Shown here: piece by piece, positions 7,240 through 37,698 of the stretch
Layout: every line of letters starts with the position of its first letter
Numbering within the stretch: the first letter of the stretch is position 1
Source of the DNA: a virus
Taxonomy: Duplodnaviria; Caudoviricetes
IMG/VR virus record: IMGVR_UViG_3300031418_000007
DNA length: 64,000 nucleotides
Reading direction: 5' to 3' (one strand)
Program-made: the position numbers and the translations under genes
Notes under the pieces: generated by a model
Told to the model about the DNA's origin: nothing
The model's database searches: none
Seen by the model: the letters and a program-made list of their open reading frames with translations, nothing else

Positions 7240-8577
7240 TTATGTATCCAATCCTTCATAAACCAAGAACAAGAACAGCGTGGCCTTTTCACGAAACACC
7301 GAGTTAGGCTGTTGGTCGTTTTGCAAAGACTGGGTAATTACCCCCAACACAATCCCCTCTACCTCTACCAGGACACTGTTAGCTTGCGTGAAGTAATACT
7401 TACACGGCATACCGGGATAGATCAAATCTGAGTTAGACTGATCCCACGGCACACTAATAAGCTCGCCGTCGTTATAGGCTGTCTCTGAAAGCCCCTTGTA
7501 GATGTTCTCCGCAGGGGTGCGATCATAAACCGATATCTGTTCACCTGAACCACGTTCGGCCGTCTGGTACTCGCTGAGTGAGTCTGAGCGCGTAGTGATG
7601 GCTTTACCCTTGGCGTAGAACATACCCGCTTTACCTGAAATAGCATCAGGGTTAATGATACGTTTACCCACACCGTTGTTCTGGCGATTGATATCCACCG
7701 TGGATTGGTGTTTGGAGTGTCCGGTTGACAAGATCGTCACGGTCTTTTCGTTGGTGTACCAGGTGGTTTCCAACTGTGGTACCGCGTCTTCTGGAAAACG
7801 GAAGATGTCCAGGACCTTTGCTGCTGTAGCGTAACGTCCCATCAGGAAAGGGGGAAACACATAGAACATACCCTTGCGATAAAAGCAAGCCAGCCCCGCC
7901 GAATAGATGCCGTACTTATCATCGTTCTGCAAATAGGTTGGGAGATCCATGAGACGTGTACCATCAGGAATCTCGATGTGTTTATAGACCTTAGTGTTAT
8001 CCCCCTCAATCGGCATGTCCACACCCCGCCACGCGTCAGCACCAGCGAGTCCGACTTGTGACCCATCTGTAATCAACGCATGCACCAGCGCCTTGTCTGT
8101 TCGTCCCAATAAGAAAACAGAGTCACTGGTGAAACTGTTCTTTAATATCGCGAAGCCCAGTTCTTGCAGCTGGAGATTAACGGTGATGATGTTCAGGTTA
8201 TCGAAGTTCTCGAGGTTACTGACCTTGGTGTTGTTACCCGACATCTCTGGATCGTTGTTGGTAAGTGGTATACAACGGTACGTCTTAGCCACTTGCTTGA
8301 GTCCTTCCCGTTCGATAACTTCTATCTTGAGGTTATCTGAAAAAGGCAATACCTGTTTAAGGTAGAGTCCGGGTTGGATCTGACACTTCAGACGGTAGTC
8401 ATCAGCACGTGAAGAAGCAAACATCGACGTTCGTGTATATTCACTGATCAAATACACCGGGATATGTTGCGTTGGCGTAATCAACGTAGCAGAGATGTGG
8501 TAGTAACGGGTCGTGCCCGCTTTAGAGATGGACTTGGCTTGAGTAATTAAGTTCTGTAGCGGTTTTGAAATGTCCAC
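7240..8577 (-). CDS. Virion structural protein, possible baseplate hub (phiKZ gp101 position)
   Basis: 445-aa beta-rich ORF at the end of the structural operon; hub assignment is inference. Confidence 0.5.
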   Translation of the reverse strand: MDISKPLQNLITQAKSISKAGTTRYYHISATLITPTQHIPVYLISEYTRTSMFASSRADDYRLKCQIQPGLYLKQVLPFSDNLKIEVIEREGLKQVAKTYRCIPLTNNDPEMSGNNTKVSNLENFDNLNIITVNLQLQELGFAILKNSFTSDSVFLLGRTDKALVHALITDGSQVGLAGADAWRGVDMPIEGDNTKVYKHIEIPDGTRLMDLPTYLQNDDKYGIYSAGLACFYRKGMFYVFPPFLMGRYATAAKVLDIFRFPEDAVPQLETTWYTNEKTVTILSTGHSKHQSTVDINRQNNGVGKRIINPDAISGKAGMFYAKGKAITTRSDSLSEYQTAERGSGEQISVYDRTPAENIYKGLSETAYNDGELISVPWDQSNSDLIYPGMPCKYYFTQANSVLVEVEGIVLGVITQSLQNDQQPNSVFREKATLFLFLVYEGLDT

Positions 8578-8580
8578 AGG

Positions 8581-9291
8581 TTAACTCCCCCAGATGCCAA
8601 ACTCTTTCCGTGCTTCTTCCTGACGCAACAAGCTGTCTACGTTGGAACGAGGAGGAATGTTGAACGCATCTTGCGGCACATGGCCAATATTCGGCAGAAC
8701 ACGCGTGGTCAAGAGATCATAATAGGAGATGAACTCAGGACGCTGCTCGCGACCGGTTTTGTGGTTGAGCTGGAACAAGCCCAGCAGTCCCAACAGACCG
8801 TTGTCTTCCCCTGGACGTTGACGGGCATCTTCCCGATGAGCACGCTGATTCAGGTACAGACGAATGCGGGCGTAGTCATCAAAGAAGTAATAGCTCAGTC
8901 TTTCGAGGTAGCGAATCTCTTCCGGGTTGATACTGCCGTAGTTCGAGTTAGTCGCATACAGCTCGTACCACAGCGAATTGTACTCCTGAATGGTTTCTAC
9001 AATCTCGATGACGTTTTTGTTGGGAAGGTCCACACGCAGCGGTTGATCTTCGGTAACGTTCTCCAACAGCGGGATAACCTTTTCCATGGTCAGAGCGCGA
9101 CGCACTGGATTAGCAAACACACCGGGATCAGCAATGGTGTCATTGGAACGATACTCACTGCGATCACGAATCTGTTCCGTGGTCATGGTGTGGCTTGGAA
9201 ATACCCAGAACGGGTAGGTGCGCTTGGTAATAATCGCATGCAGCGTAATCGCACGTTTACGGATAGCATGGTAACGTTCCACTTCAATCAT
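8581..9291 (-). CDS. Conserved hypothetical protein
   Basis: 236-aa ORF, ATGA-coupled to the upstream gene. Confidence 0.75.
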   Translation of the reverse strand: MIEVERYHAIRKRAITLHAIITKRTYPFWVFPSHTMTTEQIRDRSEYRSNDTIADPGVFANPVRRALTMEKVIPLLENVTEDQPLRVDLPNKNVIEIVETIQEYNSLWYELYATNSNYGSINPEEIRYLERLSYYFFDDYARIRLYLNQRAHREDARQRPGEDNGLLGLLGLFQLNHKTGREQRPEFISYYDLLTTRVLPNIGHVPQDAFNIPPRSNVDSLLRQEEARKEFGIWGS

Positions 9292-33889: not shown

Positions 33890-34309
33890 TCATTGATTGT
33901 TTGCGTTTTGTTCGTGGATATCGTTGAATCCCTGGGCGGCTTGTTCTTTACGTAACGCCTCAGCGCGAGCAGTTTCTGACGCAGCAAACTCTTCAAGCTT
34001 AACGCGCTCTTCATCCCCTATCATCATGCCCTGTAACAACATCTCGGCGTGACCAATAGGAAGATTCAGGTAAAGCTCCAGTGGCATGTGTTCTTTGATC
34101 TTTTTGATTTGATACTGTCGACCGATGGATTGAATCGACAGATCGTGATCATACAAATGCTCTTCGGGAGAAAAGGCAATAGATCTAAAAGCATTGGCCT
34201 TCTCGAGATCGATGTATCCCATACGCACCTGATACATCAGCCGCATGTTAAAGATCATCTTATCCCGAGAAACGTGGCGAGTACTCTTGCCCACCACGTT
34301 ACGGACCAT
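33890..34309 (-). CDS. Small tail/baseplate assembly protein (T4 gp51-like); probable -1 frameshift partner of the upstream gene
   Basis: 139 aa with KEHMPLELYLNLP; weak RBS; frame open upstream to the UUUUUU run at 34414-34419. Confidence 0.5.
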   Translation of the reverse strand: MVRNVVGKSTRHVSRDKMIFNMRLMYQVRMGYIDLEKANAFRSIAFSPEEHLYDHDLSIQSIGRQYQIKKIKEHMPLELYLNLPIGHAEMLLQGMMIGDEERVKLEEFAASETARAEALRKEQAAQGFNDIHEQNANNQ

Positions 34310-34329
34310 TGCTCTATATTGATCGTTCT

Positions 34330-36048
34330 CTATCGAGAAATAGCCGAGAGGGCTTCTTGCCTTGCATTCTCGCCAACCTTCGACCGTCCAGTATACGTCA
34401 GGCTGGCCAGGGTAAAAAACGTCGACATGATGTTGATTGGGGTGTAGCCCAGATCATTAAACGCGTCAGACTCACCAGCACAGCTTTCGCACGCATAGTT
34501 AGCCAGACCCACAAAGGTTTTGCTCATGAACGGATAGTGCTGAATAACCGAGGACACCAGGTTCTTCGCCATCTCATCGTTTTCCATGATGATGTTCACA
34601 ATACCCTGGTTAAACTGAGCAGGATCTTGTTCACGGCGACGAATGATCATCGGTTCGCCATCAGTACCCGGTTCAGGCATGACGCGGTATTCGGCGATGT
34701 AGTGCAGGTAATCGGTACCGACCAGGCCGTTGAGGAACTCTTCACGATCCTGAAGGTACTGCTCTTCGGTCATGGACTCTTCGCGGATTTTGTCCAGCTG
34801 CTTACGCACCAGCTCAGAGAAGAACTGTTCAGCTTCAAAACTTTCGGTCAGAGACGGCACACCCAGGATAAAGCAGGCGCTGCGGTTTTCGTTCCACACC
34901 GGTTCGATTTCGTGTTTGAAGTCAGTGTCAGCAATAAACTGCAAAGACTCTTCACGCGAATACTTGCGGGAGAAGTTCATCATGTTGGCGTAAGCCGCTG
35001 ATTCTTCTGCCGTGTCCAACCATTTACGGTCAATGGTCAGCAGGCTTGGATCGATGATGTCAGCACGTGACCAGTTACAGCTTTTGTCAGCCAGACACTT
35101 CATGTGGAAGTTCACGCCGTTAGGGTAGAACAGTTCCAGCAGAGAACAGGCCATGACGTTGATATCGGTGATGCGGATCACGTCAGCCAGCTCATCAAAG
35201 TCAGAGGTGTCTTTGACGCTGCACAACATCATCTTGTCACGGATAAACTGCCACACCACGCGAATAGCCGCGATGTTGCTTAATGCCGGCAGGTTCTGCG
35301 ACACCGTACGAACGTGACCACGCACAACACGCGCAATGTTGTCAATCAACTCACCGGCTTCTAAACGGTTAGGTTTAGCATAGCGGATAGCGATAAACGA
35401 GTTACGCAAAAGCAGATCGTAGTTGTACGGATCTTTACTGACGCTCAGTGATGAGCGACGCATGTATTCGCTTAACGAGAACGTTCCGCGATTACGACCT
35501 GGGACCAAACCGTTTAAGTCACCGGTTGCGATTTCACTGGTACGCTGCATGACGTTGGTCAGACCAGGCTCACGCACTACCGGGTACTGCATCATCAGAG
35601 GATCTGCCAGGTTGGAGATAAAGGCATAGATAGTGCGCTGACGATCGTTGGCTTCTTTCAAGCCGAGGTCCGGCATGTTTTCCGCGACGTACTCTTCCCA
35701 GGCGGTGATCTGTGCCTGGACCTGACTCATGCTGATGCCTTCTTTATCACGCTGTTTGTCGGTCATGCGGGCAAACTGCTGTGCGGCAACATAGTTCTGC
35801 CACATTTCCTGCTCTTGACTTACACGAGCATAGGACTCTTTGTTCAAACCAATGAACCCGTTGAGATAGGTCAGGCTTTTATCATTGATGTCGAACTGAC
35901 CCTGAACCTGAGAGCGCGGCGGCAACGCGTCGTGTGCGACGGTATTTTCAGCGGTCTGTACGGTTTGATGAGTGACCACGGTTTTCTTAACCGGGACAGG
36001 CTGTTGGGTTTCCATTGCAGCCATCTGCTGTTCTAAGTTGTCAGACAT
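34330..36048 (-). CDS. Probable tail/baseplate-hub assembly chaperone (T4 gp26-like C-terminus)
   Basis: 572 aa; CLADKSC and C-terminal YACESC...STFF pattern; GAGG RBS; TAATG-coupled. Confidence 0.5.
   Translation of the reverse strand: MSDNLEQQMAAMETQQPVPVKKTVVTHQTVQTAENTVAHDALPPRSQVQGQFDINDKSLTYLNGFIGLNKESYARVSQEQEMWQNYVAAQQFARMTDKQRDKEGISMSQVQAQITAWEEYVAENMPDLGLKEANDRQRTIYAFISNLADPLMMQYPVVREPGLTNVMQRTSEIATGDLNGLVPGRNRGTFSLSEYMRRSSLSVSKDPYNYDLLLRNSFIAIRYAKPNRLEAGELIDNIARVVRGHVRTVSQNLPALSNIAAIRVVWQFIRDKMMLCSVKDTSDFDELADVIRITDINVMACSLLELFYPNGVNFHMKCLADKSCNWSRADIIDPSLLTIDRKWLDTAEESAAYANMMNFSRKYSREESLQFIADTDFKHEIEPVWNENRSACFILGVPSLTESFEAEQFFSELVRKQLDKIREESMTEEQYLQDREEFLNGLVGTDYLHYIAEYRVMPEPGTDGEPMIIRRREQDPAQFNQGIVNIIMENDEMAKNLVSSVIQHYPFMSKTFVGLANYACESCAGESDAFNDLGYTPINIMSTFFTLASLTYTGRSKVGENARQEALSAISR
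34372..34420 (-). other. Candidate programmed -1 frameshift signal: G_UUU_UUU, 6-nt spacer, stem-loop
   Basis: Heptamer at 34420-34414; stem GCCAGCC/GGTTGGC at 34407-34372; the -1 frame opens just upstream and continues into ORF 33890-34309. Confidence 0.55.
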
Positions 36049-36755
36049 TATACTTCCTCGCGATTGTCGAGAGTATGATTGATATCACTGGCTTCGTGTT
36101 CGCAGGTGACTTCTTCGGCTACCGCAACAGTCGGCGTTGAATACTTCGGCGTGATACGCGCCAGACGGGTCATGGCTACGTTGAACATAACCTGACGGTA
36201 GTTGTGGTTCGGGTAATGCTCTTTCTGATAGGTATCAACCATTTCAGTATACGGCGTTGCCGCGGCCATGATAGCTGGACAGATCTGGGTAACCAGTGCA
36301 TCGGAACCAAAGCCGGCGTCCATCAGCAGTTCAGAGGGCAGCGTGCGCAGGTCTTTCTCGCCTTGCAGCACCATGTTAATGACTTCGGCGTTTTCGTTGA
36401 AGCGAACAACACCGGCGTCGAAGGTATCAATCAGCTCACGCAGCTCAGCAGAGATTTCGAGTTTGTGTTCGCGTTCCAGGATCTCAAGGGTTTCCACCAC
36501 TGACCCTACACCGGCGTTGACTTCGATGGTGTGGTTGATCATCGCCATCACCTGATCGATAGTGAGTTCACGACCGTTAATCACCTGACCACGTGCCAGC
36601 AGGTTTGCTACAGTGCCGTTGGTGTAACGTTCTAAACGCTCGCGACGCACACGGTCAGCACCTGATTCACGTTTCGGTGAAGAGCCCTTGGTGGCACGCT
36701 GACTGCGTTTCTTTAAATGTTTGGCCTGCATTTTGCTGCTTAATTTCTTGGTCAT
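36048..36755 (-). CDS. Hypothetical protein with a basic N-terminus
   Basis: Likely start MTKKLS at 36755 after AGAGAG; K/R-rich first 45 aa. Confidence 0.75.
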   Translation of the reverse strand: MTKKLSSKMQAKHLKKRSQRATKGSSPKRESGADRVRRERLERYTNGTVANLLARGQVINGRELTIDQVMAMINHTIEVNAGVGSVVETLEILEREHKLEISAELRELIDTFDAGVVRFNENAEVINMVLQGEKDLRTLPSELLMDAGFGSDALVTQICPAIMAAATPYTEMVDTYQKEHYPNHNYRQVMFNVAMTRLARITPKYSTPTVAVAEEVTCEHEASDINHTLDNREEV

Positions 36756-36789
36756 GTTATGACTCTCTTTAAATAAAAAGGTTAACTGT

Positions 36790-37698
36790 ATGACAGTGGT
36801 GAACAATACCATTCTGGTAAACAGAGAATTGGTTATCGATCATTGCGGTAATGTTTGGAACGAGTTCATGGAAACTATTCCCGACCCGCACGTGGTACTC
36901 TTTGAAAAAGGACTCGCTATTATCTTCCGTGCGTTTCCTGAATCTTTAGTCAGCACCCAAATCGTGGAACTGGTGGTTGACGAGCAGCTTGACGCGAATA
37001 TGCGCAGTATGGCGTTACGTAAAATTATTTACGACAACATAAGGGACATCATCAATAAGATGGGCGTGTCGTTAAATAATGATTATTTAGAAGTTGATCA
37101 TCTGGATCTGTTGTGTGATATCGCTGACTTCTTTTTCGTCGTTACATTAATAGAAGACAGTCTCCACACGATCTACCCTCAACTGATGGCCACTGAGCTT
37201 CACCCTAAGTATCGCTTCATTAATGCCTTTGGCAAAGCCATGTGTGACGAGGAAGAACCTGATCTTTCGGAACTGGAATGTATCTTGGATGATGTCAGTG
37301 AAGTGACTCTTAAGGAGATCTGTGATTCTCTGACGGGTGTAGAGAACCATGACGTCCCACCAGAGAACGTCATCAAGCGTGTAGTGGGTGCCAAAGCCAC
37401 AATGGATGGTTCATTGGGTTACCAGCACGTACGCAACGGTGGGGGACTGGGATCGCCTGTAGACAGCTACCTAAACTTCTTCTCGCCTGAGTTAGGCAAG
37501 CTGTTAGCCGAGAACACCCTCGATAGTTATATCGAGTACGGTCGCAACGTGATCTCTCTTCACCTTATCAGTGAAATCAATGATGACAAAATCAAAGAAA
37601 CACTGCTGCGTTATTTTGAAGGGCGTTTGGATGACCTCACAGCGTTGATTCGTATTGAGTCCATGATCAAGGGTCTTAACTTACCCAACGGGAGCTAA
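36790..37698 (+). CDS. Conserved protein upstream of vRNAP beta' fragment (phiKZ gp79 position)
   Basis: 302-aa acidic ORF co-oriented with the vRNAP gene. Confidence 0.65.
   Translation: MTVVNNTILVNRELVIDHCGNVWNEFMETIPDPHVVLFEKGLAIIFRAFPESLVSTQIVELVVDEQLDANMRSMALRKIIYDNIRDIINKMGVSLNNDYLEVDHLDLLCDIADFFFVVTLIEDSLHTIYPQLMATELHPKYRFINAFGKAMCDEEEPDLSELECILDDVSEVTLKEICDSLTGVENHDVPPENVIKRVVGAKATMDGSLGYQHVRNGGGLGSPVDSYLNFFSPELGKLLAENTLDSYIEYGRNVISLHLISEINDDKIKETLLRYFEGRLDDLTALIRIESMIKGLNLPNGS

Follow-up and report, generated by a model that had tools for sequence, protein, structure and literature searches.

A stretch of 64,000 nucleotides (nt) from a virus (Duplodnaviria; Caudoviricetes), IMG/VR virus record IMGVR_UViG_3300031418_000007, carries on its minus strand two neighbouring open reading frames (ORFs), one of 572 amino acids (ORF1) and one of 139 amino acids (ORF2). 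This whole stretch, at its full length, is referred to below as the window. The question raised by the locus is whether ORF2 is a gene in its own right, or is translated as an extension of ORF1 by ribosomes that slip back by one base near the ORF1 3′ end. From comparison of related loci it is considered very likely that a −1 ribosomal slip yields two forms of one protein, of 572 and 719 amino acids. This protein would be an assembly factor for the tail or baseplate hub that stays out of the virion, and its two forms may work in the manner of the G and GT proteins of phage lambda. What is annotated as a small 'gene' most probably encodes the C-terminal domain of a protein of 80 kDa. ORF1 belongs to phrog_4585 and ORF2 to phrog_19747, and the function of both is unannotated in PHROG. 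Orthologues of ORF1 are gp77 of phiKZ, gp47 of EL, gp136 of 201phi2-1 and gp39 of SPN3US, and the family is termed here the gp77 family. In phiKZ the counterpart of ORF2 is PHIKZ076.4, as determined by a phrog_4585 search of the phiKZ record. The features of the locus are as follows.

34330..36048, minus strand: ORF1, zero frame, 572 amino acids and 65.2 kDa; the short product.
34309..33890, minus strand: ORF2 as annotated, 139 amino acids, in the −1 frame of ORF1.
34414..34420, minus strand: putative slip site G_TTT_TTT, zero-frame codons ACG TTT TTT, Phe544-Phe545.
33890..34414, minus strand: −1 frame after the slip, 174 codons and a stop, the C-terminal extension of the putative 719-amino-acid long product.
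34330..34413, minus strand: zero-frame tail found only in the short form, 27 codons and a stop, dual-coded with the −1 frame.
34454..34459, minus strand: −1-frame stops TAA TGA, which close the frame 34 nt upstream of the T run.
34372..34407, minus strand: candidate hairpin, GCCAGCC/GGUUGGC with inner GAC/GUC, starting 6 nt after the slip site.

The six T's (34419-34414, minus strand) lie within the zero-frame codons ACG TTT TTT ACC. Past TAA TGA the −1 frame has no further stop across the T run and a 20-nt 'gap' and leads into ORF2; after the slip site it consists of 28 codons over the ORF1 tail, the gap and then the 139-amino-acid ORF2. No ATG, GTG or TTG is present in the −1 frame between TAA TGA (34459-34454) and position 34309, where ORF2 is annotated to start. 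A slip after the second Phe codon would give the trans-frame sequence ...IMSTFF/YPGQPDVYW... and a protein of 545 + 174 = 719 amino acids (82.6 kDa). The Shine-Dalgarno sequence of ORF2 is weak: AGAG alone precedes its ATG, compared with GAGGA for ORF1 and GAGG for the downstream gene. A first-pass annotation of this DNA had listed the two ORFs, the U run, the −1 stops, the 6-nt spacer, the stem-loop and the poor ribosome binding site, and all are present at the positions it gave. Its product sizes of 572 and about 719 amino acids are also borne out, with computed masses of 65.2 and 82.6 kDa.

The same arrangement was looked for in related phages. A megablast search with the region found no match among 50,697 phage records, and close relatives were therefore taken from IMG/VR and Logan. 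A tblastn search with ORF1 found matches in 74 phage records, all from phiKZ-like jumbo phages, at identities of 33% or less. Three sets of junctions were assembled. The first comprises 22 loci ranging from 77% down to ∼25% protein identity, drawn from IMG/VR and Logan/JGI relatives of the window and from EL, Joad, Miami, FishSpeaker, Aphrodite1, AH04, OBP, AhC3_1 and phiKZ. The second consists of seven more distant phages, namely 201phi2-1, Xoo-sp14, RSF1, Ea35-70, PCH45, SPN3US and Bacillus phage AgentSmith. The third consists of 37 further IMG/VR loci found from a 12-sequence alignment, and is biased towards loci that carry the FF motif, as one of the two search patterns held this motif.

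A run of six to eight T's is found at the homologous site in every locus, without exception among ∼60 distinct loci. In all of these the downstream ORF is in the −1 frame, which is already open ahead of the T run, and the extension has a length of 165-185 codons. A check that had been fixed beforehand, a count of orthologues that lack the U run or carry a −1-frame stop, returned zero of ∼60. The hidden −1 frameshift proposed in the first-pass annotation is supported by this record, in which the signal for the slip, the relation of the two frames and a conserved, open −1 frame are universal in the family. The heptamer in most lineages is U_UUU_UUU, U_UUU_UUC or U_UUU_UUA; some members of the window's clade have G_UUU_UUU or A_UUU_UUU, and a single locus elsewhere has C_UUU_UUU. 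Whatever the first base, the P-site codon in every locus is an in-frame UUU and the next codon is UUN (N_TTT_TTN). AgentSmith keeps the run as GTT TTT TTA despite residues that read V-F-L.

Two of the distant phages have features of their own. AgentSmith, a 200-kb Bacillus phage with the slip site at 2373-2379, carries this gene pair with an open 'gap' of 215 nt, and its record names the large gene 'putative baseplate hub assembly protein'. Since AgentSmith has both the gene pair and the T run, the frameshift would reach beyond the chimalliviruses of Gram-negative hosts. In PCH45 (2239-2380) the slip site is 135 nt before the ORF1 stop, compared with 27-90 nt elsewhere, so that its short form would have a much longer private tail. 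A sequencing error or a pseudogene was considered as a source of the frame change and rejected, as the same arrangement is present in ∼60 independent assemblies.

The −1 frame has the properties of a coding frame well upstream of the annotated ORF2 starts. These starts are ATG, GTG, TTG or CTG and are at differing aligned positions. The gaps between ORF1 and ORF2 vary from 11 to 218 nt and all are open; the 201phi2-1 pair is annotated with a 4-nt overlap. The frame is always kept, and the gaps stay open and in frame through many insertions and deletions. In many members conserved blocks such as ..LVGK....S.D..IF..RLLYQ.. are found upstream of the called ORF2 start. Opposite the window's ATG (34309), a relative of 62% identity has CTT, and a start codon at this place is missing from more distant members. 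Chance openness of the −1 frame from the slip site to the annotated ORF2 start was estimated from each gene's own −1-frame stop density, and ranges from 0.7 down to 3e-8 per lineage. An example is phiKZ, where 85 codons are open upstream of the called start in a genome with 36% guanine + cytosine (P ∼5e-8), and where the trans-frame junction would read ...MLSTFF/YFGGLEVK... Over 18 diverged lineages the summed chance is ∼1e-38 when lineages are taken as independent, an assumption through which the figure overstates the case, though not by tens of orders of magnitude. The −1 frame is thus open, constrained as protein-coding sequence and conserved among relatives, as is expected of a programmed −1 ribosomal frameshift site.

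The T run shows its own signs of constraint. At the site, 18 of 18 lineages use TTT for the first Phe, a codon that makes up only 29% of Phe codons elsewhere in these genes. The ratio of TTT to TTC elsewhere in the gene is 0:29 in a relative designated P0013 and 0:14 in Xoo-sp14, both of them GC-rich, and both keep the T run. The run is under selection at the nucleotide level. In the window's clade, the identity of synonymous codons rises from 0.49 over the gene to 0.81 across its last 31 codons; the highest value in 552 upstream windows is 0.61, and the rise coincides exactly with the slip site, which precedes the ATG at 34309 by 105 nt. Over the 77 nt from the slip site, identity is 87% among phages whose proteins are 43-77% identical.

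The stop codon that follows the slip site is likewise retained. A search of 1.84 billion representatives yielded 93 clusters of homologues, and in none of these are ORF1 and ORF2 hard-wired into a single frame. All 93 clusters end within ∼35 residues of the FF motif, so the stop after the slip site is always kept. An ever-present short form and stop are what is expected if both forms are needed. The zero-frame tail after FF, which ends in ...EALS.., is itself conserved across loci.

With respect to this tail, the short-form end ...EALS(E/D)-stop and the nucleotides GAAGCCCTCTC (34330-34360, minus strand) are kept across lineages that share ∼30% protein identity. The bases of the EALS end read RSPL in the −1 frame, and the driver of their conservation may be either reading frame or a role in the RNA.

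The following mechanism is proposed. A fraction of ribosomes that decode UUU UUU (34419-34414) near the 3′ end of the gp77-family gene would slip back by one base. Ribosomes that do not slip would stop 27 codons later and release the 572-amino-acid short form, whose last 30 residues are predicted to form a helix that ends in the conserved ...EALS... Those that slip would exchange this terminal helix for a conserved extension of 174 residues that includes the whole of the 139-amino-acid ORF, giving the 719-amino-acid long form. One gene would in this way encode two proteins that share their first 545 residues, in a ratio set by the efficiency of the slip. Family-wide, the slip site appears to conform to the X_XXY_YYZ rule, of which the version in the window's clade is seemingly a weaker form. 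After a slip at G_UUU_UUU, the tRNA-Phe in the A site would pair fully with the −1-frame codon. The slip at this weaker heptamer may be helped by the conserved hairpin that follows 6 nt later.

The hairpin (34407-34372) is present in the minimum free energy fold. Its core of six base pairs, CCAGCC/GGUUGG, pairs in 11 of 11 clade members, with one-sided changes only, and alternates between G.U, A-U and G-C at two positions. These bases are constrained by two reading frames as well. In other clades the predicted structures differ, one example being a long-range GGCCUCGA/UUGAGGCC stem in phiKZ, or are absent. The hairpin is a candidate stimulator of the slip. Of the stem-loop described in the first-pass annotation, the hairpin itself and the pairing of its core stand; its conservation is confined to the clade, and no significant covariation accompanies it. 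What the window contributes is a clade with a non-canonical G_UUU_UUU, a clade-wide hairpin and a sharp synonymous-site signal.

Other explanations for the locus can be set against these data. In one, the window's clade would make three products: the short form, the frameshifted long form and a free 139-amino-acid protein, the last by reinitiation at the ATG at 34309, 20 nt after the ORF1 stop. An ATG is present 20 nt past the stop in the window and in several close relatives, and T4 gene 26 also has an annotated internally started product, 26′. The replacement of the ATG by CTT in the 62%-identical relative, the absence of a start there in distant members and the weak Shine-Dalgarno sequence of ORF2 speak against this possibility, which is held to be rather unlikely.

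A second explanation is transcriptional slippage, in which the RNA polymerase of the phage or host inserts an extra U where the template has the T6-T8 run, and a subset of mRNAs joins ORF1 and ORF2 in frame. It would account for the fact that only a T-run length of 6-8 is strictly common to all loci, the run starting at codon position 1, 2 or 3, and that no RNA stimulator is common across clades. These phages also have unusual multisubunit RNA polymerases, one of them encoded near the gp77-family gene. T runs of six or seven are short for productive polymerase slippage in bacterial systems, however, and each locus offers the in-frame UUU UUN that tandem slippage of tRNA-Phe needs, most as T_TTT_TTY/A. 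On these two grounds transcriptional slippage is rated less likely than ribosomal slippage. The hairpin of the window's clade is also at the classic spacing of 6-7 nt, and no variation in run length was found in contigs of four metagenome runs, which cannot show rare RNA variants. Polymerase slippage is decidedly improbable as the source of the fusion, and a slip by the ribosome rather than by the polymerase is favoured.

That the locus consists of two ordinary genes, with ORF2 made only by its own initiation at 34309 and with FF, T run and frame kept for protein-coding reasons or by descent, agrees with the two genes of the genome records, with the ATG near the ORF2 start in the window's clade (GTG in one relative) and with the conservation of the zero-frame tail in itself, but is very hard to reconcile with starts that vary in position and kind and in several cases are called inside conserved sequence, with gaps of up to 218 nt that are open and in frame through many indels, with a T run held against a strong TTC preference and even where the residues are V-F-L, with synonymous suppression that begins 105 nt before the ATG, and with the weak ORF2 Shine-Dalgarno sequence.

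As to function, the AlphaFold2 model of ORF1 has a predicted local distance difference test score (pLDDT) of 89 and a predicted template-modelling score (pTM) of 0.85. The slip site is at the start of a predicted terminal helix (540-571) that is found in the short form only, and the 34330..34413 tail makes up most of it. In the ESM Atlas the model matches a cluster of PF12322 (T4_baseplate) with a template-modelling (TM) score of 0.72 by target, 256 of 260 residues aligned and a root-mean-square deviation of 4.4, over ORF1 residues 192-551. In BFVD it matches rows of ∼250 amino acids labelled 'baseplate hub subunit / hub assembly protein' (E 1e-3 to 0.1, probability 0.9-1.0, TM by target ∼0.45-0.53). 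In both databases the matches are between predicted models on both sides. The PF12322 fold thus appears to be present in the predicted structure of ORF1. Among 60 homologues C318, C324, C520 and C523 are invariant and F544 and F545 nearly so, and ORF1, like the gp26 family, has conserved Cys pairs, a probable zinc site, and a C-terminal FF.

Sequence comparison gives fainter traces of the same relationship. Weak hidden Markov model matches, several of them in one register, align ORF1 profile positions ∼257-317 with gp26 of T4 at ∼126-190, with a best E of 1.6e-4 for a 52-sequence set; this region also comes up when hhalign is run against a gp26/gp51 profile. Hhalign of the ORF1 profile against the single T4 gp26 and gp51 sequences aligns the CPxC motif only. 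No Pfam match was obtained for ORF1, ORF2 or the extension; for ORF1 there is none at E ≤ 0.1, PF12322 included, and none to Phage_TAC. The PF12322 model found no match in five chimallivirus genomes, a weak blank, as 14 control genomes also gave none. ORF1 is probably a fold-level relative of the hub assembly chaperones, with family membership not demonstrable by sequence. The term 'tail/baseplate chaperone' in the first-pass annotation agrees with the predicted fold, in the PF12322 match over 256 residues and the BFVD rows; the sequence is below the Pfam threshold, which leaves the term at the level of fold. Records of phiKZ and 201phi2-1 flag neighbouring genes as virion-detected and the gp77-family gene not, which fits a chaperone.

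PF12322 bears the NCBI name 'gp26 family baseplate hub assembly chaperone'. T4 gp26 and gp51, of 208 and 249 amino acids, both match it over their first 200 residues and are paralogues. As in the gp77 family, gp26 has two conserved Cys pairs and a C-terminal FF (C82xC84, C187xxC190, ...CPECGK...EFFELL), so the likeness of the CxxC...FF end to T4 gp26, proposed at the outset, is readily seen; within the gp26 family C82, C84 and C190 are invariant and C187, F204 and F205 nearly so. Both gp77-family proteins and gp26/gp51 appear to be non-virion. ORF1 differs in having over twice the length, and in its N-terminal region and insertions. In T4 the shorter and the longer version come from two paralogous genes, whereas the gp77 family would make them from one gene by a slip, and the two T4 paralogues of different length may be a duplicated-gene version of the frameshift arrangement. 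The FF of T4 gp26 is coded TTC TTT and hence has no slip site; to our knowledge no frameshift is known in PF12322 genes. The companion proposal, that the partner encoded by ORF2 is gp51-like, is not supported: hhalign of the extension against gp26 and gp51 shows no similarity, with a probability of 0.2% for gp51, and the model of the extension is of low confidence. As paralogues, gp26 and gp51 share one family, and the protein with a resemblance to it is ORF1.

In the stretch of T4 that was read, gene 26 is at 7803-8429 on the minus strand and gene 51 at 8480-9229 on the plus strand. A TAATG overlap joins T4 gene 26 to gene 25, whose start is in the −1 frame of gene 26.

A −1 frameshift is reportedly conserved in tail assembly chaperone genes, among them lambda G/GT, P2 E/E+E′, Mu and HK97, a finding said to be that of Xu, Hendrix and Duda in 2004. 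The gp77 family resembles lambda gpG/gpGT in a putative −1 slip close to the 3′ end of a gene for an assembly protein that is not part of the virion, in short and extended forms that would share an N-terminal body, in a stop just after the slip site that is always kept, and in an arrangement that is conserved while sequences diverge. Comparison of the loci points to the two forms by slip that define the G/GT pair, and the analogy with G/GT drawn in the first-pass annotation is a reasonable one, as the predicted fold of ORF1 resembles the gp26/gp51 chaperones. By analogy with lambda, the common body of 545 residues may bind one partner, and the extension, present on a minority of molecules, may recruit a second. 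As is said of P2 E/E+E′, the slip would occur on a run of T's. The gp77 family differs from lambda G/GT in the size of the body, 545 residues compared with ∼100-140, and in an extension of ∼174 residues that lacks a recognisable fold. The ESM Atlas also gives ORF1 a weak row for PF08890, with a TM of 0.52 by target and 96 residues spread over 50-546. The gp77 system is also comparable with tau/gamma of Escherichia coli dnaX, where two forms of one protein are made in a ratio governed by a −1 slip at the homopolymeric heptamer A_AAA_AAG, followed after 6 nt by a hairpin. The outcome of the slip in dnaX is a truncated protein, whereas in the gp77 family the slip would add a domain; dnaX further uses an upstream Shine-Dalgarno-like stimulator, and none is seen just upstream of the T run in the window.

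Several results weigh against a ribosomal slip that makes two forms of a hub chaperone. The long protein is a prediction from genome comparison, and transcriptional slippage would give the same product. The window's heptamer, G_UUU_UUU, is non-canonical with respect to X_XXY_YYZ, with re-pairing of the P-site tRNA at two of three positions. Covariation in the hairpin is not above that of shuffles in the 11 clade members, its minimum free energy is no better than that of shuffles (window z −0.5 to −0.9), and predicted folds have no structure common to the other clades. The ATG at 34309 makes some independent initiation of ORF2 possible in the window's clade. The AlphaFold2 model of the 174-residue extension is poor (pLDDT 62, pTM 0.39), and the extension has no recognisable fold or relatives, with no usable match in the protein atlas. 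For ORF1, the chaperone assignment is one of predicted fold alone. It has no PF12322 match at the Pfam threshold, and one of 60 homologues matches at E 0.018; hhalign against the gp26/gp51 profile is not significant (E 0.02, probability 2%). Searches of the Protein Data Bank (PDB) with ORF1 gave no match by profile (none below E 0.27), by Foldseek with the model (none at E ≤ 0.001) or by VIA-align, where a wide search reached a best Z of 5.9 with single helical pieces and was uninformative. Lastly, as the first-pass annotation had pointed out, the gene is not beside a tape measure gene: unlike lambda G/GT, which is upstream of one, it is between the genes for a virion RNA polymerase beta′ piece and DNA polymerase.

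The accessible portions of the literature, which included a 2026 jumbo-phage review, the Goslar virion structure, the SPN3US essential-gene study and the PCH45 transposon sequencing (Tn-seq) study, yielded no published description of this frameshift or of a role for gp77; the first-pass annotation had likewise known of no such frameshift in phiKZ-like phages. All genome records examined annotate ORF1 and ORF2 as two genes. If the frameshift is real, every one of these records mis-annotates a gene pair that belongs to the core of all phiKZ-like phages, with a small 'gene' that in most lineages has no conserved start of its own. Among the phages affected are candidates for therapy as well as the model systems phiKZ, 201phi2-1, SPN3US, PCH45 and Goslar-type phages. 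The frameshift would be the second family-wide recoding event in these phages, and would offer a way into the assembly of their tails and baseplates, a process about which little is understood. The principle that a frameshift sets the ratio of two chaperone forms would also be extended to a gp26/gp51-like family and to a site away from the tape measure gene, a setting for which nobody had expected it. In practical terms, knock-outs, Tn-seq insertions and antisense matches in the small ORF would be matches in the long form.

A broader idea can be offered tentatively. The gp77 family may conceivably be the giant-phage counterpart of the G/GT principle, applied to a hub chaperone of the gp26/gp51 type, with the T4 paralogues (a short gp26 and a longer gp51) and the chimallivirus frameshift as two solutions to a fixed ratio of short to extended form; on present evidence this is possible and somewhat doubtful. 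If it were true, T4-like phages, a long-standing exception, would be tied to the rule of a conserved tail-gene frameshift. The extension would then be a new partner-recruiting domain, and the ...EALS.. end a competing docking peptide.

The surroundings of the gene pair are also conserved. EL, Joad, Miami and phiKZ share the order virion RNA polymerase beta′ piece, gp79-like gene, gp78-like gene, ORF1, ORF2, a gene of ∼190 amino acids and DNA polymerase. In the window, the gene between ORF2 and DNA polymerase encodes 188 amino acids. The upstream gp78-like ORF (36812..36048, minus strand) ends in TAATG, a one-base overlap with the ORF1 start (36046-36050), and this overlap suggests that the gp78-like and gp77-like genes may be translationally coupled. 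The first ATG of the gp78-like ORF has no Shine-Dalgarno sequence, and the real start may be further in.

The phyllosphere metagenomes that contain this phage, at a depth of ∼25-29, also carry a far commoner relative, with contig depths of ∼670-1300 in two runs. In that abundant relative, ∼409 diverged letters take the place of the ORF2 body (33901-34317), and the ∼80 nt after the slip site have one difference, at 34397, among the differences listed.

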